Of a DNA stretch of 64,000 bases, positions 10,725-62,401 are shown one piece after another; the first letter of the stretch is position 1; the number at the start of each line of letters is the position of its first letter. The notes beneath the pieces are model-generated. The model did no database searches. It saw only the letters and a program-made list of their open reading frames with translations, and was not told where the DNA came from. Source of the stretch: an uncultured Bacilli bacterium (GTDB taxonomy: Bacteria > Bacillota_I > Bacilli_A > RF39 > UBA660); the NCBI GenBank assembly GCA_934098505.1, contig CAKOOR010000006.1:19655-83654 (forward strand), read 5' to 3'. Made by a program: the position numbers and the translations under genes.

Positions 10725-11165
10725 ATGAATGGAACATATTATCAAAACCCTACTTTTCCAACAAATCAAAATAATTATGATGTTAATATGAATTCAATTC
10801 CTAATAGTCAAAGTATTCCTACTAATACAAACATACCAAACAATAACAGCCTACCATCAACATTAAACAATTATAATCAAGACTATACATCAGGAACATC
10901 GCTTCCAATGGAACAAAGTTATATTGAAAATATTTTAAGACTAAATAAAGGAAAAATGGTTAAAGCTTATGTTAGTTTTCCTGATTCTACTGAATGGCGT
11001 AACAAAATTTTTGCCGGCCGTATCGAAGAAGCGGGACGAGATCACTTAATCATTAGTAATCCAAACACCGGCGAATGGGATTTAATTTTAATGATTTACT
11101 TAAATTACGTTACCTTTGATGAAAGAATAAATTATAGCCATAGTTATTCGCAAAAGAACTTCTAA
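10725..11165 (+). CDS. gerQ: spore coat protein GerQ
   Basis: N/Q-rich N-terminus. The conserved C-terminal block is YVSFPDSTEWRNKIFAGRIEEAGRDHLIISNP...LILMIYLNYVTFDE. RBS GAGGTGA lies upstream. Confidence 0.75.
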   Translation: MNGTYYQNPTFPTNQNNYDVNMNSIPNSQSIPTNTNIPNNNSLPSTLNNYNQDYTSGTSLPMEQSYIENILRLNKGKMVKAYVSFPDSTEWRNKIFAGRIEEAGRDHLIISNPNTGEWDLILMIYLNYVTFDERINYSHSYSQKNF

Positions 11166-34828: not shown

Positions 34829-34916
34829 TTCTAACACATCCAGTCATTACTAACGATTATAGCAAATTATTAAAATTTTTAATAGAATTATGCTAAAATA
34901 ACATTAGGTGATACTT

Positions 34917-35978
34917 ATGACTTCTATATTTACTGATGAAGATACGATAAAACTAATTAATTACATTATTAGTAAAATTAACTTTTATAGTAATTCTTAT
35001 CTTTTAATTAATAATTTAGATTTTTTATACTACCAAGCCGATAAATTTTTTAATATTTTTTTATACTATGACAAAACTTATCAAGACGCAAAGAAAAAAG
35101 GATTAACCAAAATTAGTAAGAACAACCATTATACCCAAATTTCTATTGAAGAAATGTATAACCTAACTCAAGAATTTTTAAATTTTTATCACATTAACCT
35201 TAACATTTCTAACTTAGTTAAAGATAAAAAAATAATTATTAACAATATTAAAGAAAAATTAGAAAATAAAGAAATAACTGATGAAGAGTATAACAATTTA
35301 CGTTTTAATGCTCGCTGTAACAAAGGATTAATTCACTTTAACTATTGCGGTGATATTATCGACTGTGTTGTATTTTTACATGAAATAACTCATCTTCGTA
35401 ATAAACCTTTAGATAACAAAACTCATAGAACAGAAATTAATGATTTTATAACCGAAAGTATAGCCTATGCTGAAGAATTTATTTTTTTAGACTTTTTAAA
35501 AACTAAAGGATATGAAGATGATTATAATAATTATTTATGTGATATTTTCTATAATTGTCTTGTTTTCTCTGATAGAGTCTATTATGTTAATAAAATATTA
35601 TATGTTTATAAAGAAAAAGGTAACATTTCTAAAGATAGTTATACTAGTATTTTTAAAAATCATAAAAATTATGAACCAGCAATTAAAGAACTTTATAAAC
35701 TAATAATAAGTAAAAATTCTTATATTGAACTTATGTGGACTTTTCTAGGATATATCAGTGGTTTATATCTATACATCATGTATTTAGAAGACCATAATTA
35801 TTTTCAAATTGTAGAAGAATTAAATGAGGCTATAACAAATGAAAAATGTACTTGGCAAGATATTTTTAGAATCCTTAAAGTTAATAAACCCGAAGAATTA
35901 TTTAAGATAATGTCTGAAAAAATAGATTATTTCGTAAAAAATGAAACCTTAAAATTAAAAATGCTATCGATTGCTTAA
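34917..35978 (+). CDS. hypothetical cytoplasmic HExxH protein (possible gluzincin-type peptidase)
   Basis: HEITH motif (VVFLHEITHLRNK), with ESIAYAEE about 24 residues downstream. The likely start is ATG at 34917 after AGGTGA. Confidence 0.45.
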   Translation: MTSIFTDEDTIKLINYIISKINFYSNSYLLINNLDFLYYQADKFFNIFLYYDKTYQDAKKKGLTKISKNNHYTQISIEEMYNLTQEFLNFYHINLNISNLVKDKKIIINNIKEKLENKEITDEEYNNLRFNARCNKGLIHFNYCGDIIDCVVFLHEITHLRNKPLDNKTHRTEINDFITESIAYAEEFIFLDFLKTKGYEDDYNNYLCDIFYNCLVFSDRVYYVNKILYVYKEKGNISKDSYTSIFKNHKNYEPAIKELYKLIISKNSYIELMWTFLGYISGLYLYIMYLEDHNYFQIVEELNEAITNEKCTWQDIFRILKVNKPEELFKIMSEKIDYFVKNETLKLKMLSIA

Positions 35979-48857: not shown

Positions 48858-50456
48858 TTACGCATGAAACGGTTCAGATGCCGTCCCATTGCCATTATTT
48901 AGAATCTCAGAGCTTAGATTTAAAACTGGACGGGCACCAAGCCTGTTGCCGACACGGTTGCTGATACCGTCCATGCTACCCGCAAAGCCGGTTGAAAGCA
49001 CAATATACTCTTGAGCACTGTTATAATCGAAGGAATCGGACGACATAGTCCAATAAGTTTGTCCAGAGTATAAATAATAATTTGAATTATTTGAATTCCA
49101 ACCACCCGCTAAAACTACCTCATCAGCCGTAACAAGGCCAATACCATAAGTAAGAGCTCCGTTCCCTTTGCTAGTATCACTAACTGTAAAAGCATCATTT
49201 TTTTGTGGACACGTTAACATCATTTTATTATTATAAGAACTATATGCAAAATTATGCCAGCGATATGACGTTTCCTCAGTACCGTAGCCTTTAGTGCTCC
49301 AACCACTTAGCATATTGCTACTTAAAGAACGATCGTTACAAAATAAATTATCTTTAACATATTGTTCATTGGTTATGCCTTTAATATTATTTTCATACCA
49401 CGTATCAAGATAAGTCTTAATATCAGAGCTATTAGTATTAGTTTGAGCTTTATCTTTACTTGTTGTTCCATAAGTAACATAACTATAACCAATGGTTGCC
49501 CTTGATGAACCTGCTGTAACACTAGTAATTTTATAAATATATTGATTAGAAGTACTAGAACTTGTTCCGTTAAAAGTATAGTAACCAATATAATCACTTG
49601 TCATGGAATTTCCAAGTACGGCAATCGGATTTTTCAAAGTAAATTTATCTGTTGAAGCATTATAACTATATTCCTTAGCAATATAATAAGTACTAGTATT
49701 TGTATAAGATGAAGTAGAATATTGAGTTGATTGTTCAACTATACCATCTCTATTACCATACATGTAACCAAAACCAGCATTATCATTTAAAACGTATGAA
49801 TTAGCACTTTCCTTAACATTATCCTTTTTCCAGTAATAATTAAAACTAGTAGTCCCTATTTGTCTATCGACACTCGCATCATTATTGGCATGAGCTACTG
49901 TTCCATCATATATAACTCTTACTGTTCCGTCACCATTATATCTTATAATACGCCAATATTTCCCAGCAAATAAGACATAATTATTGGTTACATTACCACG
50001 GTAATAATACGAGTCCCCATAAACATCTTTAGCTCTACATAAATAACCATAAGTATCTTCTGCTCTAGTTACGGTTACAGTGCCATCACTATTCATTGTT
50101 GGGCATCTTCCCATTTCATCTAAATAAAATTTTTTATCAGCTAGTGTAAAACTTTCTAAACTTTTAAAATAAATATTACATCTACTTCTTATCCCCCAGT
50201 TAGAAAGTTTTATTCCCCACTTACCATAATCCCAACTAGCATTCTTATTATTATCACATACTATTTTATCTACAGCATATCCACTACCTTTAGTTGGTAA
50301 AATTTCAGAATAAGTACCATTAATATATGCACCAATTAACGGCTCTTCTTTTGGAATAGAATTATAATAAGTAATACATAGTCCAATAATTGCAAATGCA
50401 CTAACTAAGCCAGATATTATAATATATTTTCTTTTTTTATTTTTAAATATTTTCAT
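48858..50456 (-). CDS. membrane-anchored surface protein, paralog 1, with a variable-region-like GC-rich C-terminal segment
   Basis: 532 aa. N-terminal TM and conserved blocks shared with 51013..52356 (YYYRGNVTNNYV.FAG.YWRIIR.NGDGTVRVIYDG, MMLTCPQKNDAFTV). It ends ...LGARPVLNL...NNGNGTASEPFHA. Confidence 0.6.
   Translation of the reverse strand: MKIFKNKKRKYIIISGLVSAFAIIGLCITYYNSIPKEEPLIGAYINGTYSEILPTKGSGYAVDKIVCDNNKNASWDYGKWGIKLSNWGIRSRCNIYFKSLESFTLADKKFYLDEMGRCPTMNSDGTVTVTRAEDTYGYLCRAKDVYGDSYYYRGNVTNNYVLFAGKYWRIIRYNGDGTVRVIYDGTVAHANNDASVDRQIGTTSFNYYWKKDNVKESANSYVLNDNAGFGYMYGNRDGIVEQSTQYSTSSYTNTSTYYIAKEYSYNASTDKFTLKNPIAVLGNSMTSDYIGYYTFNGTSSSTSNQYIYKITSVTAGSSRATIGYSYVTYGTTSKDKAQTNTNSSDIKTYLDTWYENNIKGITNEQYVKDNLFCNDRSLSSNMLSGWSTKGYGTEETSYRWHNFAYSSYNNKMMLTCPQKNDAFTVSDTSKGNGALTYGIGLVTADEVVLAGGWNSNNSNYYLYSGQTYWTMSSDSFDYNSAQEYIVLSTGFAGSMDGISNRVGNRLGARPVLNLSSEILNNGNGTASEPFHA
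48927..49046 (-). repeat. VR-like segment 1 (40 codons, ATG TCG TCC ... CGT CCA)
   Basis: Homologous to 50774-50866 and 51082-51192. It is locally GC-rich in an AT-rich genome. Confidence 0.6.
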
Positions 50457-50866: not shown

Positions 50867-51012
50867 GTCTTAAAAGAACAAACAATAGTTTATAGGACAA
50901 ACCAACTTTATATAATATTACTAACTCTATTATATCATATAAAGATTTTCGCCACGGCCAAATGATGATTCATTTGACGACCTATCTGCCTCGCATTAAG
51001 TTTTCTAAATGC

Positions 51013-52356
51013 TTACGCATGATATGGATTACTTGCCGTTCCATTGCCATTATTCAGAATTTCAGACTTCAGATTGAAAACTGGACGGGCACCAAGACTG
51101 ACGAAGACGGCGCCGTCGCTGCCCACAAGGCCGTCCGAACTCACGTAACGCTCAAGAGTGCCGTCTTCATCGTCGAAGCGATCAGGAGACATTGTCCAAT
51201 AATATTCACCATTATATAAATAATAGTTGTAATTTCTTGAACTCAAACTACCAGCTAAAACTACTTCATCAGTTGTAACAAGGCCAATACCATAAGTAAG
51301 GGTCCCGTTACCTTTACTAATATCAGTTACGGTAAAAGCATCATTCTTTTGTGGACACGTTAACATCATCTTATTGTTGTTAACATTAGATGAAAAATTA
51401 TACCAACGATAATCTGTTATGCTAGTTCCCGCACCCGCACCACTATTATTCGGTGCAAAGCTTCTATCATTACAGAAAAGATTATCGGCAATATACTGTT
51501 CATTAGTGGTACCTTTAATATTATTTTCGTACCATGTATCTAAATAAGTCTTAATAGTTGAATTATTAGTATTAGCATGAGTTTCTTCATAACTTGATGA
51601 ACCTGCGGTTCCATACATATAACCAATATAAGCATTATCATCACACTTATCATTAAACGCACTTGTTCCAATTATTCTATCACTACTTGACTCACCATTG
51701 ACATGAGCACTCTTACCATCATATATAACTCTTACCGTACCATCGCCATTAACGCGAATAATACGCCAATAAAAGCCAGCAAATTTAACATAATTATTAG
51801 TAACATTTCCTCGATAATAATAACTAGTACCATAAGCATCCTTCATACTACATAAATAACCATATTTACTTTCAGCCTCAGTAACCGTTGCTGTGCCATC
51901 TGCATTTACTGTTGGACAAAGTCCATAATCATCTAATGGAACTGCCACATTACCAATGTTTATTTTCTCAACATCCACAAAATAAATGTTACATTTACTT
52001 CTTTTCGTTACATTAGATATTGTTGGTCCCCAATCTTTGGCGCTCCACTCACCAACTGCACCATTATCACAAACTATTTTATCAACCTTATAACCAGTTG
52101 CTTGAGCTGGAGCATCTTCAACTAATTGACCATTGACATAATTATTAATAACAACATCGCCTCTTATAAATGGTGCAACTGTCGCTCTTACAACTTCTTG
52201 CTCTTGAGTAACAAAAAATTTAGAATAAGCAAAATAAATACCTAATATTCCGCATAAAATACATGGAACACCAATATAAAAATACCGCGAATTACTCTGC
52301 CAAAATCGTTTTAATTTTAGTTTTTTTAAATATTTATCCTTATTAAATTTTTTCAT
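51013..52356 (-). CDS. membrane-anchored surface protein, paralog 2, with a variable-region-like GC-rich C-terminal segment
   Basis: 447 aa. Same architecture as paralog 1. It ends ...LGARPVFNL...NNGNGTASNPYHA. Confidence 0.6.
   Translation of the reverse strand: MKKFNKDKYLKKLKLKRFWQSNSRYFYIGVPCILCGILGIYFAYSKFFVTQEQEVVRATVAPFIRGDVVINNYVNGQLVEDAPAQATGYKVDKIVCDNGAVGEWSAKDWGPTISNVTKRSKCNIYFVDVEKINIGNVAVPLDDYGLCPTVNADGTATVTEAESKYGYLCSMKDAYGTSYYYRGNVTNNYVKFAGFYWRIIRVNGDGTVRVIYDGKSAHVNGESSSDRIIGTSAFNDKCDDNAYIGYMYGTAGSSSYEETHANTNNSTIKTYLDTWYENNIKGTTNEQYIADNLFCNDRSFAPNNSGAGAGTSITDYRWYNFSSNVNNNKMMLTCPQKNDAFTVTDISKGNGTLTYGIGLVTTDEVVLAGSLSSRNYNYYLYNGEYYWTMSPDRFDDEDGTLERYVSSDGLVGSDGAVFVSLGARPVFNLKSEILNNGNGTASNPYHA
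51082..51192 (-). repeat. VR-like segment 2 (37 codons, ATG TCT CCT ... CGT CCA)
   Basis: Very GC-rich and adenine-poor on the coding strand (for example GGC AGC GAC GGC GCC GTC TTC GTC). It is GC-rich enough to create a spurious antisense ORF (50962..51219). Confidence 0.6.
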
Positions 52357-52442
52357 TTTTCAATACTCACATTCTAACTACAATAATTATAAGTAAAAAT
52401 AAAAGAAAATTTTGTCGAATCATAGTTTACATATATTTACAC

Positions 52443-52473
52443 TTTTCATAGAGTTGCATACTTCTATGAAAAA
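52443..52473. repeat. lox/dif-like site L: 11-bp arm, 8-bp spacer TTGCATAC, 11-bp inverted arm
   Basis: TTTTCATAGAG TTGCATAC TTCTATGAAAA. Confidence 0.7.
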
Positions 52474-52660
52474 TATAGGTAAACACTGGCTTTGAATGAC
52501 TATTTGACTATAAATTTGACGAGAATAAAAATTAATAAAATATGTTTAACAACTTTAGCAATCCTCTATAATTATTGGAAATTTTATATATTTTTATGAC
52601 GAGAAATTTGACTATAAAAAGGATTAAACACTAGTAAAAATATCTTTAAAATATACTATT

Positions 52661-52682
52661 TTTATGGTATATTTATGGTATA
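52661..52682. promoter_or_regulatory. perfect 11-bp tandem direct repeat (TTTATGGTATA x2), candidate response-regulator box
   Basis: The 11-bp periodicity is typical of OmpR/PhoB-family sites. On the minus strand it lies just upstream of a TATATT -10-like hexamer (52650-52655) facing paralog 2. Confidence 0.35.
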
Positions 52683-52709
52683 AGTTAAAAATAGATAACG
52701 TATTTTTGG

Positions 52710-52738
52710 TTTCATAGAGGTATGCAACTCTATGAAAA
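52710..52738. repeat. lox/dif-like site R, inverted relative to site L
   Basis: TTTCATAGAG GTATGCAA CTCTATGAAAA. The spacer is the exact reverse complement of the site L spacer, and the arms match site L with one mismatch. Confidence 0.7.
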
Positions 52739-52789
52739 TTTTTAAATTCATAGATTACCCAATTATTTATATAATATACAAAAAAAGTC

Positions 52790-54001
52790 CTACTTTTTAA
52801 ATAGAACTTTAAAAGTTGTAACCTTACCAACACTTTCTGCCGATATTTTACCATTATGATTAAGAACAATATTCTTAGCAATAGCAAGCCCTAAACCATA
52901 TCTATTTTCTTTCCTACTTCTAGATTTATCTAACCGATAAAACCTTTCAAATATCTTTTCTTCCTCTCCTTTAGGAATTACATCTCCTGTATCAGTAACA
53001 CTAAGTAATATATTATTACCTTGTTCCTTTAAACTAACAACAATCGTACTTTTTTTATCTGCGTGTTTTAAAGCATTATCAAGTAGAATCTCTACTAACT
53101 CATTTATCGAATAACTATCAAAATTAAACTTAATATTTTCATCGATATTACTTTCTAACTTTATATCACTCTCATATGCTTTAGCATCAAATGTTAATAC
53201 AGCAAGCTCTACAACTTTCGATAAATTATCTTCCTTTAATATATAAGTTTCTTTCTTTTCAAAAGTAGCTAACACTAATAAATTCTTAATTAAAATATTC
53301 ATCCTATTAGCTTCGCTTTTAATATTATTTAACCATTTAACTTCATTAGGATTATCTTCTAAAACTTCACTACTAGCAATAATAACTGATAAAGGTGTCT
53401 TTAACTCATGAGAAGCATCGGCTATAAACTCCTTTTGTTTTTCAAAACTACTTATTACTGGTTTAATAATCCAATTAGTTAATACCGTACTTACTAAATA
53501 AACTATAGCTTCTAATAAAACAAATAAACTTAAAGAAATCAATAAATAATTATATAAACTATTTTGAATACTACTATTATCTATAATAGTTAAATACTTA
53601 CCATTATTATAAACATAACTATATTTATTAAAATAAATATTACCTATATATTCTCTTTTAATATCATTCTTACTTAATATAGATTGTCCTAATAATTTAA
53701 TACTATCTATATCTATATTATTATTAGATAAATTAATAACTTCTTTAATACTATTATCACTATTTAAAAGAATAGTATAAATAACTTTATCCATATATCT
53801 TATATTATTATCTTTAAAACTATTATCTTTATTTACTTTATTCTTATCTTCTTCATTATTCTTAGCTATTCTTAAACTATTACTAATAATCTTATTAGAT
53901 TCTATATACTTTTCAACATTAAAGACAATAATAAAACCTAAAATACTAATACTTAAAATACTAAATATTAGAGTAAATACTTTCTTCTTTAAATCATTCA
54001 T
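52790..54001 (-). CDS. sensor histidine kinase (two TMs, extracytoplasmic loop)
   Basis: 403 aa. H-box ASHELKTPLS and an HATPase region (GLGLAIAKNIVLNHNGKI). Confidence 0.9.
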   Translation of the reverse strand: MNDLKKKVFTLIFSILSISILGFIIVFNVEKYIESNKIISNSLRIAKNNEEDKNKVNKDNSFKDNNIRYMDKVIYTILLNSDNSIKEVINLSNNNIDIDSIKLLGQSILSKNDIKREYIGNIYFNKYSYVYNNGKYLTIIDNSSIQNSLYNYLLISLSLFVLLEAIVYLVSTVLTNWIIKPVISSFEKQKEFIADASHELKTPLSVIIASSEVLEDNPNEVKWLNNIKSEANRMNILIKNLLVLATFEKKETYILKEDNLSKVVELAVLTFDAKAYESDIKLESNIDENIKFNFDSYSINELVEILLDNALKHADKKSTIVVSLKEQGNNILLSVTDTGDVIPKGEEEKIFERFYRLDKSRSRKENRYGLGLAIAKNIVLNHNGKISAESVGKVTTFKVLFKK

Positions 54002-54680
54002 TACTATACTCCAACTTATATCCCATATTTCTTAAAGACTTAATATTTACTTTAGAGTCTATAGCTTTTAATTTCTTTCTAATAAAGGATAAATATACTT
54101 CTAAGTTATTAGACTTTATTTCATTATCTAATCCCCATATTTTATTATATATTTGATCTTTAGATAAAATTAGATCTTTATTAATTATTAAGTACTCTAA
54201 TAATAATAATTCCTTATTAACTAGCAATACTTTATTATTATTATTTATACAACTTAAATAAGAAGTCTTTAAATTTAATTCTATATCTTTATAAGATAAA
54301 ATATCTTTATTAGTTTTACTACTACTTCCTTTAAGTTGAATATTAACACGTGCTACTAATTCTTCTATATGAAAAGGTTTAGTTATATAATCATTGGCTC
54401 CATTTTCTAAACCTTCTAATTTATCATCTAAAGTCGACTTAGCCGTTAACATAATAATTTTTGTATTTATCTTATCTTCTCGAAGTTTCTTTAAAATAGT
54501 AAAACCATCCATATCAGGTAACATAACATCTAAGATTATTAAATCATAAGTATCACATAAAGCTTTATAATAGCCTTCTTCGCCATTACCTTCTATTTCT
54601 ACTTGATAATTATTATTTTCTAAACTAGCCCTTATAACATCAGCTAACGCTTTTTCATCTTCAATAATTAATATATTCAT
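53994..54680 (-). CDS. OmpR/PhoB family response regulator
   Basis: 228 aa. REC domain (ILIIEDE...DLIILDVMLPDMDG) and a winged-helix C-terminus (LRNMGYKL). It overlaps the kinase gene. Confidence 0.9.
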   Translation of the reverse strand: MNILIIEDEKALADVIRASLENNNYQVEIEGNGEEGYYKALCDTYDLIILDVMLPDMDGFTILKKLREDKINTKIIMLTAKSTLDDKLEGLENGANDYITKPFHIEELVARVNIQLKGSSSKTNKDILSYKDIELNLKTSYLSCINNNNKVLLVNKELLLLEYLIINKDLILSKDQIYNKIWGLDNEIKSNNLEVYLSFIRKKLKAIDSKVNIKSLRNMGYKLEYSNE

Positions 54681-54773: not shown

Positions 54774-55973
54774 TTATTCTTTACCTAATAACCAATCAAC
54801 CACATTTATTTTTTTTATTCCATCATAATCAGTTTCTAAATCATTATCCATTGTAAGTAATACTTTAGGATAAAAATCACCTGTTTTTTGTAAAGATTTT
54901 AATTCTCTTTCTAACACTTTATCATCTCTTACACTAAGTGCTACTTGATAATACTTTAATCCTTCTCTATTCTTGGCAATAAAATCGACTTCTAAATCTC
55001 TTGTTTTACCAACATAAACAGTATAGCCTCTTCTTAGCAATTCTAAATAAACTATATTTTCTAAAATATGGCCCATATCTTGATTAGCTTTTTTACCTAA
55101 AAGAAAACTTCTAAGTCCCATATCAACACTATAAAATTTATAATTTCCTTCCAATAACTTTTTACCTTGAATATCAAAACATTCAAGCTTATATATTAAA
55201 TAGCTATTTAAAAAAGCATTGATATATTTATCAACAGTATAATAATTTATAGGCATTCCTTTACTAGTAAGAGTATTACTAATTTTATTAATTGATACTT
55301 GACTACCGATACTATCATAAATAAATTTTAAAATTCTTTCTAATTCTAATTTATCCATACTATTTTCTCTAGTCATTATATCTTTATAAACAACTGTTGA
55401 AAATATTCCATCTAAATACTTATCAATTCCATTGTAGTTAGCATCTAATAGATTGACTACGCCAGGTAAACCACCTGTTTGCATATACTCTAAAAATAAA
55501 GATTGATAATTAGTATTATTAGATACACTAACATATTCTTTAAATGATAATGGTAACATTTCTATTTTTATATAACGTCCTGATAGTAATGTAGCAAGTT
55601 CTCCCGATAAAAGAGTACTATTAGAGCCAGTTATATAGACATCAATGTTCTTTTTTATATATAAACTATCTACTACTTTTTGAAAGTCTTTAACAATTTG
55701 AACTTCATCTAAAAATACATAATATTTACTTTCATTTTTTATTAAACCATTAACATATTTATAAAATTCTTTATAATCTTGAAAATCATAATCAGCATCT
55801 TCTAAATTAATATGAATTATTTGATTTTCTTTTATTCCTTGATTTTTTAATTCCTCTATAAATAAATCAAATAATGTTGACTTTCCACATCTACGCATGC
55901 CTGTAATAACTTTTATTACATCTTTATCTTGCCATTTTTTTAATTCCTCTATATAAGTTGGTCTTTCTATCAT
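54774..55973 (-). CDS. AAA-type ATPase with DUF4143-like C-terminal domain (COG1373-like)
   Basis: 399 aa. Walker A GMRRCGKST and Walker B VFLDEVQ. Confidence 0.7.
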   Translation of the reverse strand: MIERPTYIEELKKWQDKDVIKVITGMRRCGKSTLFDLFIEELKNQGIKENQIIHINLEDADYDFQDYKEFYKYVNGLIKNESKYYVFLDEVQIVKDFQKVVDSLYIKKNIDVYITGSNSTLLSGELATLLSGRYIKIEMLPLSFKEYVSVSNNTNYQSLFLEYMQTGGLPGVVNLLDANYNGIDKYLDGIFSTVVYKDIMTRENSMDKLELERILKFIYDSIGSQVSINKISNTLTSKGMPINYYTVDKYINAFLNSYLIYKLECFDIQGKKLLEGNYKFYSVDMGLRSFLLGKKANQDMGHILENIVYLELLRRGYTVYVGKTRDLEVDFIAKNREGLKYYQVALSVRDDKVLERELKSLQKTGDFYPKVLLTMDNDLETDYDGIKKINVVDWLLGKE

Positions 55974-61390: not shown

Positions 61391-62401
61391 CTAGCACTTT
61401 CTTATTTTTTCTATTTCCTCTACTGAAAGACCAGTTATCTTAGATATGGTTTCATTATCTAGGCCTAGGCCGATAGCATTTTTAGCATTTTCAGAGGCTT
61501 TTTCTTTAGAACCTTGTTCAATACCTTGTTCGATACCTTTTTCTATTCCTTCTTCTACACCGTCTTTATAACGCTTTTTTGCATCTCTTTCGGCTTCGGC
61601 AAGTCTAGTATTAAAGGCCATTTCTTCATTGCTAAGTTTCGTAAATAAAGCAATATTTTCTTTATCACAAGATAACTCTTCGATGCGGTAAATTAATTTT
61701 TCAGCATCTTCTTTTCCCATAATTTCTTCTGCCTTTCTTTTAAAAGTTTCTAAATCATTTGTATTCATTAAAATACACCAATTAGCAACCTTTTTTTCTC
61801 TCTCATCAATTAGATTATACCATGGGTTAAGAGCAAAATTAACAGAAATCGTATAAAAAATATCGTCCCAGCCAGTATCAATAATATTATCTTGATCTTT
61901 CATTTGACTAATTGAAACTAATCTTAATTTATTAGTATCAAAAAAATCGAAATTCACTTGGACTAAGCGGTCAATATTATCATAAGTATTATCTCCTACA
62001 TCTAAAGAAAAACTACCAATTTTATTACTATAAACCTTATTTCTTCTTAACATAGAATTAGAAGTATTTATTTCCACATTAATATATTCTTCTTCTTCAT
62101 CACCGTCTTCATTAAACATTTTATGTTTAATAAGCAAATCTACTTTATTTAACATATTCTTTTTATTAGAATTCTTTAAATCTCTATTTAAGTATCTTAT
62201 ATTACCAATAAATACCTCTTTTTTAATACTTAATACATCTGATAATAATTGATAAAGGACAAAATCATAGTCTTCATCATTAAATATTTGGGTAAACATA
62301 AAATCTTGTTTTAAGGGAATTATCTGACTCTCTGATAACTTATCTATTCTTACATTCTTCCTTTCTTTTTTTAAATTTTCTTTATTTATTTCTAATGACA
62401 T
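61391..62401 (-). CDS. Rpn/YhgA-like PD-(D/E)XK recombination-promoting nuclease (putative transposase family)
   Basis: 336 aa. N-terminal PLKQDFMFTQIF and a characteristic C-terminus (EEGIEKGIEQGIEQG...ISKITGLSVEEIEKI). Confidence 0.65.
   Translation of the reverse strand: MSLEINKENLKKERKNVRIDKLSESQIIPLKQDFMFTQIFNDEDYDFVLYQLLSDVLSIKKEVFIGNIRYLNRDLKNSNKKNMLNKVDLLIKHKMFNEDGDEEEEYINVEINTSNSMLRRNKVYSNKIGSFSLDVGDNTYDNIDRLVQVNFDFFDTNKLRLVSISQMKDQDNIIDTGWDDIFYTISVNFALNPWYNLIDEREKKVANWCILMNTNDLETFKRKAEEIMGKEDAEKLIYRIEELSCDKENIALFTKLSNEEMAFNTRLAEAERDAKKRYKDGVEEGIEKGIEQGIEQGSKEKASENAKNAIGLGLDNETISKITGLSVEEIEKIRKC

Follow-up and report, generated by a model that had tools for sequence, protein, structure and literature searches.

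Most of the 38 surface-lipoprotein genes of Mycoplasma penetrans have an invertible promoter of their own (PMC2268961, citing Horino, 2003). As summarized there, the mpl (P35) genes form a large multigene family spread over several chromosomal loci, most members are turned ON or OFF independently by inversion of the adjacent promoter, and candidate tyrosine recombinases that act globally are encoded near some of the clusters (PMC2268961). The Mpi invertons of Bacteroides fragilis and other Bacteroidales and the RecV switches of Clostridioides difficile follow a comparable plan: promoter segments of 150-300 bp with inverted repeats are found at many loci, the recombinase acts in trans, and surface structures of gut inhabitants are controlled (PMC2268961; PMC7446863; PMC9286219). 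Here, we analyze a 64,000-nucleotide stretch from the genome of an uncultured Bacilli bacterium of the RF39 lineage (GenBank contig CAKOOR010000006.1, positions 19,655 to 83,654, forward strand; hereafter, the window), in which positions 52444-52737 very probably constitute a promoter inverton, an OFF-state member of a large inverton family that precedes genes for hypervariable membrane-anchored proteins.

The traits listed above recur in this family, in which the trans-acting recombinase is a candidate. Judged by analogy of regulatory logic, M. penetrans mpl is the closest described system, followed by the Bacteroides invertons and C. difficile RecV switches. Unlike the Mpl proteins, the window-family proteins are N-terminally anchored, lack a lipobox and are not lipoproteins; the host belongs to uncultured gut Bacilli with sporulation genes; and the recombination sites are 27-bp lox-like palindromes with pair-specific spacers. 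The Mpi and RecV systems differ from the window family in phylum, recombinase and repeat sequences, and we know of no description of constant palindromic arms with a covarying variable spacer in either. Full-text literature searches found no description of the site motif or of phase variation in RF39/RFN20-type Bacilli, with the reservation that their coverage is incomplete and the main gut-inverton surveys may fall outside it. Thus, while the inversion principle is established, the host lineage, the regulated protein family, the combination of constant arms with pair-specific spacers and the footprint of concerted spacer change appear to be new.

The original prediction, made from the letters of the window, had proposed a pair of lox/dif-like sites in inverted orientation as a candidate invertible switch. 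Two inverted sites are indeed present; the positions first assigned to them, 52443-52473 and 52710-52738, merely include extra flanking T/A bases. The core of the locus is as follows, with L-numbers denoting loci or contigs from other assemblies that were compared with the window:

51013-52356, minus strand: the controlled gene, 447 aa; its product has a Lys-rich N-terminus, a single transmembrane helix and an ectodomain rich in beta structure and belongs to a hypervariable family.
52357-52443, minus strand: leader of 87 nt, from site L to the start codon; identical in ON-state contigs L200-L203.
52444-52471, no strand: site L, the gene-proximal recombination site, which follows the family consensus TTTCATAGAG-N7-CTCTATGAAA with one extra spacer base and one arm substitution; outer arm 52444-52453 TTTCATAGAG, spacer 52454-52461 TTGCATAC, inner arm 52462-52471 TTCTATGAAA.
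52472-52709, no strand: invertible segment (238 bp); 70 other switches have homologous interiors, and the orthologous segment is flipped in L200-L202 and L204-L213.
52710-52737, no strand: site R, the gene-distal recombination site, an inverted copy of site L; inner arm 52710-52719 TTTCATAGAG, spacer 52720-52727 GTATGCAA, outer arm 52728-52737 CTCTATGAAA.

Both window sites are 28 bp long, with 10-bp palindromic arms flanking an 8-bp spacer, and the spacer of site R is the exact reverse complement of the spacer of site L, as had been read at the outset. Taken as inverted repeats, the sites are separated by 236-238 bp and match at 27 of 28 positions; the sole mismatch, also noted earlier, falls on the first inner-arm base, beside the spacer (T in L, C in R). 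A repeat finder returned the pair as 36-nt arms with 89% complementarity, 238 nt apart. The 28-mer site pattern has exactly two matches in the 64 kb, on opposite strands, and none in 100 dinucleotide-preserving shuffles; the number of copies in the window stays at two even when two mismatches are allowed per arm. The description of an arm pair around an asymmetric 8-bp spacer is accurate for the window strain (layout 10-8-10) and fails for the family, in which the spacer is asymmetric and odd-length, at 7 bp (10-7-10). Likewise, the comparison with lox and dif holds as far as tyrosine-recombinase architecture is concerned, and dif is resembled in architecture only: a dif/XerCD site is ruled out by the occurrence of the sites in inverted pairs, many per genome, before one gene family.

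The window element is one member of a large switch family in uncultured gut Bacilli. A scan for the 17-mer TTTCATAGAGTTGCATA over one genome per species (596 Gb) gave about 40 single matches scattered over unrelated phyla, about 70 chance matches being expected by our own estimate, and paired inverted matches 255-274 bp apart in seven species represented by metagenome-assembled genomes (MAGs). These species are labeled 'uncultured Bacilli bacterium', 'Mycoplasma sp. CAG:956' and 'uncultured Tenericutes UMGS735'; several of their genomes hold more than one paired locus, and an arms-only search reveals more pairs, with other spacers, on the same contigs. A metagenome scan for TTCATAGAG-N7/8-CTCTATGAA returned at least 120 stretches, mostly from human-gut assemblies, and the pair counts below rest on the matches listed in that scan. 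They include 81 pairs of sites with a spacing of 252-268 bp. Almost all of these pairs are followed, 9-118 bp downstream, by a gene whose product is N-terminally anchored, and tandem clusters with one switch per gene occur in L006, L049, L148, L175 and L196; in the gut Bacilli metagenomes, such pairs precede hundreds of paralogues that encode membrane-anchored proteins. The possibility had been raised that the palindrome is a dispersed element resembling repetitive extragenic palindromic (REP) sequences; it is dispersed but not REP-like, as it is found almost only in inverted pairs before one gene family.

The spacers of the family follow a pattern of their own. Between switches, no other part of the site varies as much as the spacer, with at least 22 distinct versions among the unique switches, and even the orthologous switch of another species (L132) has a different one, TTAAATA. 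Within a switch, by contrast, the two spacers are exactly reverse-complementary in 78 of the 81 pairs and, after deduplication, in 69 of 71 unique switches, as compared to a mean of 4.6 and a maximum of 14 upon partner shuffling. Across 69 switches, each of the seven spacer positions shows 0-1 partner mismatches, the arm bases flanking the spacer mismatch in 14/69 on one side and 3/69 on the other, and partner identity beyond the 27-bp site is at the background level. The combination of constant arms with pair-specific spacers implies that each variable surface-protein gene has its own, largely independent switch, and the excess of matched pairs (69/71 vs. 4.6 expected) suggests that recombining partners may require matching spacers.

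The second line of evidence comes from assemblies in which the window's own locus is found both ways between unchanged flanks, as the proposed inversion predicts. The ON-state contigs were reached via relatives of the 447-aa protein. L201 is collinear with window positions 52471-50901 across the gene and leader (98.1% identity) and is collinear on the kinase side as well, while its switch matches the opposite strand of 52431-52738 at 93%. L202 likewise combines a collinear gene and leader (98.1%) with a switch on the opposite strand (93-94% for L201/L202), and L200 and L202 have the same flipped junction as L201. In L204, the flank is collinear at 91%, the switch is inverted at 91%, and the gene is collinear at 81%; the ten samples of this more distant lineage (L204-L213) are all flipped at the orthologous locus. 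In total, the OFF orientation is present in the window, L001-L004, L009, L064, L089, L128 and L132, and the ON orientation in L200-L202 and L204-L213.

This polymorphism is not confined to one locus: an all-against-all comparison of flanks and interiors finds it in at least eight other switches. Between L099 and L123, the flanks are 97% and 92% identical and the interior is inverted at 97%; between L122 and L148, the respective values are 97.5% and 99.5% for the flanks and 96% for the inverted interior. Inverted interiors are also observed in the comparisons L148/L173, L138/L161 and L118/L129 and between the tandem paralogues L006a/L006b. Among L196-L199, which encode an identical recombinase protein, the flanks are collinear at 97-99%, and the site-to-site stretch of L196 is flipped relative to L197-L199 at 95-98% identity.

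Signs of both orientations within a single sample are fewer. L202 is a fold-back contig with the gene-side flank at both ends, which indicates that both junction types were present among the reads of that sample. L203 starts at the site, L200 starts 26 bp before it, and 28 of 146 true contig ends fall within 120 bp of a site, a weak indication given that the contigs were selected for sites and that gene-family repeats also break assemblies. Flipping the window in silico produced no usable junction-spanning open reading frame (ORF) for a look-up in the protein collection.

The interior of the segment provides the means by which inversion could control the gene. Its elements are:

52477-52489, plus strand: AGGTAAACACTGG motif, located at the end of the segment farther from the promoter; conserved in the family consensus.
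52503-52522, plus strand: first TTTGAC direct-repeat box pair, TTTGACTATAAATTTGACGA, with a 12-bp period and in the promoter direction; kept in the family consensus.
52595-52614, plus strand: second direct-repeat box pair, TGAC, TATGACGAGAAATTTGACTA, about 50 bp upstream of the -35 element; kept in the family consensus.
52645-52684, plus strand: sigma-70-type promoter predicted by a promoter scan; -35 TTTAAA at 52645-52650, 17-bp spacer, TG at 52665-52666, -10 TATATT at 52668-52673.
52676-52684, plus strand: predicted second -10, TGgTATAAG, from the 11-bp tandem duplicate.
52710-52747, plus strand: terminator-like element, the site R hairpin followed by ATTTTTAAAT; one found where none is expected, and the only one of the region.

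The TTGAC direct repeats and the 11-bp tandem repeat that had been read in the segment are both there, the former at 52505-52535 and 52597-52627 and the latter (TATGGTATATT / TATGGTATAAG) at 52664-52685. In the consensus of 71 oriented switches, the promoter TTTAAA-17-TGnTATAAT is the most conserved block; it is located 35-75 bp from one site, with the -10 element approximately 35-45 bp from that site, and is directed outward across it. Two TTTGACYA box pairs of the same orientation, with a 12-bp period, precede the promoter, and the consensus also holds an inverted pair of AGGTGAATACTGG motifs. The boxes and the AGGTGAATACTGG motif, which all switches have, could be arm-type sites for the N-domain of a recombinase or could be recognized by an OmpR-type regulator such as the one encoded beside the window switch. 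In the window, the promoter is directed at site R and the 3' end of the kinase gene, away from the gene at 51013-52356, and the window copy is thus OFF; in the ON-state relatives, the same block faces the ATG. The promoter scan found no promoter-like site on the gene strand in 52357-52443. Among the 70 switches with an assigned gene side, the promoter faces the gene in 12 and away from it in 56, with two that are not orientable; for consensus assemblies, the 56 are in keeping with a repertoire that is mostly silent. The site on the side away from the gene is followed by a T-rich tract in 24/63 switches, as compared to 1/63 for the gene-side site, a bias which, together with the terminator score of site R, suggests that the palindromic site doubles as the terminator stem for the OFF transcript. 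The conserved extended -10 promoter and the hypervariable, membrane-anchored nature of the protein family lend support to the idea, already voiced in the original prediction, of a phase-variable promoter that controls a surface protein.

The position of the crossover can be narrowed down from the relatives. In the L099/L123 comparison, an arm variant, TTCATAGAA, located beside the spacer on the inner arm, moves with the segment while the outer arms stay; a single-nucleotide polymorphism (SNP) that travels in this way places the crossover between the arms, inside the spacer. An asymmetric spacer, the traveling SNP, a partner match confined to the spacer and a recombinase gene adjacent to some switches (see below) all favor the tyrosine-recombinase architecture ascribed to the sites at the outset. 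The inversion would most likely be carried out by a recombinase encoded elsewhere in the genome, the best candidate being a Tn1549/lambda-Int-like 355-aa enzyme, which would bind the arms, make staggered cuts at the spacer edges and exchange strands, thereby flipping the segment. In the ON state, the promoter would read through site L and the 87-nt leader into the gene at 51013-52356; in the OFF state captured in the window, it would read toward the 3' end of the kinase gene and meet the terminator-like site R hairpin with its T run.

The same scheme may account for the concert of the spacers. Staggered cuts at the two spacer edges would give recombinant sites with one spacer strand from each parent, and replication would then yield one daughter with the parent-A spacers at both sites and another with the parent-B spacers at both. 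A spacer mutation would thus be lost or copied to the partner in one round, and we infer that the covariation is explicable without selection. Integrases of the Tn916/Tn1549 type are known to tolerate spacer heterology, in agreement with this copy-or-loss view. The extra base that the window strain has in both spacers may be an illustration of such copying.

Several observations weigh against an active promoter inverton at this locus. Orientation was read from consensus assemblies that represent different samples rather than from the reads of one culture, and the within-sample evidence is confined to the L202 fold-back and contig breaks. The activity of the promoter, the transcription start and the terminator are predictions from consensus, and the 56 of 70 promoters that face away from their genes would also be expected if the promoter assignment were wrong. 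Neither tblastn with the family recombinase nor motif scans found a recombinase in the window, none was found in the rest of the 80.7-kb contig (7-9 kb on either side of the window), and no recombinase could be tied to the window's species. Finally, the 8-bp spacers are unique among the 81 pairs listed and known from two assemblies, both OFF; tyrosine recombinases usually care about spacer length, and the window copy could therefore be slow or locked.

Carried to its end, this last point gives the rival explanation that survives best, which we nevertheless regard as unlikely: 8-bp spacers and an arm substitution disabled recombination in the window strain, leaving the gene permanently OFF in a relic of a switch. 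The confinement of the 8-bp spacer to this strain, the OFF orientation of all assemblies that have it and the C-to-T change beside the spacer in the inner arm of site L are in its favor, as is the sensitivity of Cre- and lambda-Int-type enzymes to spacer length. The details of these changes point the other way. The extra base is present at both L and R, where L002, a strain 99.2% identical over 9.2 kb, has 7 bp at both, like all other family members; one round of recombination followed by replication would give this outcome, although two independent insertions at equivalent positions may also do so. The promoter, the boxes and the arms are otherwise intact, and the same arm substitution is present in switches that are seen both ways.

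The candidate for the enzyme that acts on these sites comes from related genomes. A 355-aa protein is encoded 161-195 bp from a switch, divergently from the family gene, in seven loci (L105, L122, L148 and L196-L199), and the same recombinase gene lies beside a single site in L144. The protein has Phage_integrase and SAM_3 domains, and its closest solved sequence relative is the Tn1549 integrase. Its predicted model, with a predicted local distance difference test score (pLDDT) of 87, has strands at residues 8-10, 16-25 and 28-36 and a helix at 39-56 ahead of the SAM-like and catalytic domains; in the fold comparison, the Tn1549 integrase ranks first (template modeling score 0.63-0.71), and XerA, full-length lambda Int and the integron integrase IntI4 come next. 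As modeled, the enzyme of the related genomes thus has a heterobivalent-type layout, with N-terminal arm-binding-type, core-binding and catalytic domains; a comparison of its N-terminus with the Pfam Tn916 N-domain is not significant (E = 1.3). The gene occupies a conserved chromosomal position, where its neighbors include a 545-563-aa gene, rmuC and the RNase J gene; genes of mobile elements were not noted there. The adjacent switches (L196-L199:9517-9805; L148:3421-3709; L122:3532-3820; L105:5658-5946) face the surface gene in L148 and L196 and the recombinase gene in L105, L122 and L197-L199, so that the switch promoter may drive recombinase expression in the 'OFF' state; this strain-dependent direction hints at a feedback on the switching rate.

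Two further loci are of note. L155:3661-4870 (43% GC, an unrelated organism) encodes a 328-aa tyrosine recombinase, 35% identical, inside a 1185-bp segment that has an outward TTGACA-17-TATGAT promoter and is flanked by identical arms with spacers TAATTCA / TGAATTA. This layout is Hin-like but with a tyrosine enzyme, and the presence of the homologue within identical arms ties the recombinase lineage to the arm sequence. In L098:8397-9538 (53% GC), a site is located 288 bp before a homologous gene.

Other candidates for the flipping enzyme were discarded. Within the window, the ORF at 34908-35978 (plus strand, 356 aa) gave a weak match to a profile hidden Markov model built from 36 recombinases; it has a HEITH (HExxH) motif and no Pfam family or integrase domain, and the match is spurious. 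A 285-aa Xer-like gene located 4-5 kb from switches in L061, L063 and L102 lies between deoD and ppdK, a position that makes it a probable housekeeping gene, and it was rejected. Four recombinase homologues (P0003, P0012, P0019 and P0024) occupy conserved chromosomal positions, with no adjacent switch and no tie to the window's species.

It remains rather improbable, in our estimate, that the enzyme is of another kind altogether, such as a housekeeping Xer-type tyrosine recombinase or a serine invertase. The lack of a recombinase assignable to the window's genome leaves room for one, and so do the Xer-like gene near three switches and the homologues of about 50% and 75% identity that sit at conserved positions without an adjacent switch. 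A serine invertase is at odds with the odd 7-bp spacer, which is unfit for a 2-bp crossover, and no serine-recombinase motif is present in any locus retrieved; the Xer-like gene has a housekeeping-like location; and it is the 355-aa enzyme that directly adjoins switches in seven loci and a lone site in an eighth and has a homologue enclosed by identical arms in L155. The searches of the window itself agree with the early expectation that the recombinase has to act in trans.

Explanations that dispense with inversion fare worse. The palindromes could serve as operators for a dimeric regulator, as terminators or attenuators, or as the halves of a long-range RNA helix without any DNA rearrangement: both sites can fold into hairpins, with energies of -10 to -12.6 kcal/mol (-12.6 for site R), site R with its T run scores as a terminator, and spacer covariation is formally compatible with an RNA helix. 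Such roles cannot explain interiors found both ways between unchanged flanks or an arm SNP that moves with the segment, an Rfam search of 52200-52900 found no family match, and termination seems to come on top of the recombination role of the distal site rather than to replace it; we consider this reading highly improbable. Equally hard to credit is a miniature inverted-repeat transposable element (MITE) with ~28-bp terminal inverted repeats spread through genomes, which would explain the many copies per genome, the terminal inverted repeats and the homologous ~240-bp interior, but not copies always at the same place upstream of one gene family, a pair-specific concerted change not expected of transposon ends or an element that flips in place with unchanged flanks, and the inspected flanks have no obvious target-site duplication (no systematic search was made).

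Granted a promoter inverton, its parts can be matched to several well-studied recombination systems. With Cre/loxP and FLP/FRT, the window family shares two inverted binding arms and a short asymmetric spacer that sets the direction. Engineered heterospecific lox and FRT sites are productive only with matching spacers and form orthogonal pairs. Unlike loxP, the family has arms of 10-11 bp instead of 13 and a 7-bp spacer instead of 8; its set of at least 22 spacers is natural, with orthogonality suggested by the pairing pattern, and its candidate enzyme appears to have an extra N-terminal arm-binding-type domain that is absent in Cre. The integrases of Tn1549 and Tn916 and lambda Int (PDB 6emy, 1z1b) provide the best sequence and fold matches, with an N-terminal sheet and helix and an overlap region of ~7 bp; by contrast, they integrate and excise mobile elements, whereas the switch-adjacent enzyme resides at a fixed chromosomal position and is 18-21% identical to them. 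These integrases use arm-type sites, for which the TTGAC boxes of the window family are candidates only. Salmonella Hin and the phage Gin and Cin systems also rely on a promoter-bearing invertible segment for a surface antigen, and the recombinase of L155 lies inside the segment as hin does; yet they use a 26-bp site with a 2-bp crossover, a serine enzyme and a Fis-bound enhancer in place of a 7-bp spacer and tyrosine enzymes. The R64 shufflon (Rci/sfx) has a tyrosine recombinase, a 7-bp spacer, many sites per locus and surface-protein diversity as its product, but its spacer is common to all sites and coding segments are shuffled; in the window family, the arms are common, the spacers are pair-specific, and only promoters flip.

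A broader model can be built on these comparisons, which we put forward tentatively and would not yet favor. One Tn1549-Int-like recombinase would serve dozens of switches per genome, kept orthogonal solely by their 7-bp spacers (at least 22 heterospecific sites), with the spacers matched as a by-product of strand exchange; one 'master' switch would toggle the same promoter between a surface gene and the recombinase gene, giving rise to self-regulated combinatorial surface coats. Should it be true that one enzyme serves all spacers without cross-talk, the family would offer a natural, ready set of orthogonal inversion sites for engineering.

Some switches depart from the rule of one private spacer per pair. 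Three have non-matching spacers (L088:1227-1503, L103:4973-5249 and L174:2788-3076), with mismatched spacers that read TATCTAA..TTTGCAA and TTAAAAA..TATTTAA; the right flank of L088 matches, inverted, the flank of a TTGCAAA switch in L105. These switches look like inter-switch recombinants, and such hybrids may be locked. The same spacer is kept in some tandem paralogues (GTTAAAA twice, CTATAAA twice; L006:8-2181; L196:4586-7343), and strains with an identical recombinase protein have anywhere from 1 to 4 family genes next to the recombinase gene, which suggests deletions or duplications between same-spacer sites. In the distant lineage L204-L213 (e.g., L204:2210-3001), the kinase upstream of the switch is a 61-119-aa remnant beside a Fic gene and the gene-proximal arm is TTTATAGAG; with all ten samples ON, this locus may be a locked-ON derivative.

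The 447-aa protein encoded downstream of the switch has no sequence match in Pfam, NCBIfam or the PDB, and its AlphaFold model (pLDDT 43) is unusable. Its relatives in the protein collection number more than 6292; many of them are encoded on contigs of 1.5-2.5 kb, and some have weak DUF6273, GLUG or ALK/LTK glycine-rich matches. The proteins of the family have a conserved N-terminal region and widely varying C-terminal domains; in the window and related loci, the N-termini are Lys-rich, followed by one transmembrane helix, and have no lipobox cysteine. A large phase-variation system acting on hypervariable membrane-anchored proteins would thus be run by an abundant, uncultured group of human-gut Bacilli, which public records label 'Mycoplasma sp. 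CAG:956', 'uncultured Tenericutes' or 'uncultured Bacilli'. In Bacteroides, Clostridioides and mycoplasmas, such systems shape immune evasion, phage resistance and colonization. The switch family explains the poor assembly of these genes, and pairs of TTCATAGAG-N7-CTCTATGAA about 265 bp apart provide a simple rule by which the switches can be found and scored in metagenomes. Concerted change stops abruptly at the junction of spacer and arms, which maps the strand-exchange region from sequence alone and suggests a testable route to the concerted evolution of partner sites.

The switch sits in a 433-bp intergenic region between the 447-aa gene and a kinase gene, and the genes around it are all on the minus strand. 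The placement of the segment between a two-component system and the gene at 51013-52356, as first described, is borne out by the gene layout:

52790-54001, minus strand: histidine kinase.
53994-54680, minus strand: OmpR-type response regulator.

Adjacency to the two-component system is specific to this locus, as most switches have no such neighbor. The window is ~27% GC with housekeeping genes throughout, which shows it to be chromosomal. The switched gene is followed by a second family-type gene without its own switch (48858-50456, 532 aa, no Pfam match); a TGaTATAAT promoter-like site is located at 50925-50943, ~470 bp upstream of the 532-aa gene, and no terminator was detected after the 447-aa gene. 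An AAA_14/DUF4143 ATPase (54774-55973) and an Rpn-like protein with a weak HTH_Rpn_C match (61391-62401) are encoded a few kb from the switch; no link to it is seen. Sporulation genes are represented by GerQ in the window (10725-11165), Spo0A just beyond its left end (L185:14808-15578) and, in L012, SigE and SpoIIGA-like genes beside a switch; they are present although public records call the relatives Mycoplasma or Tenericutes.

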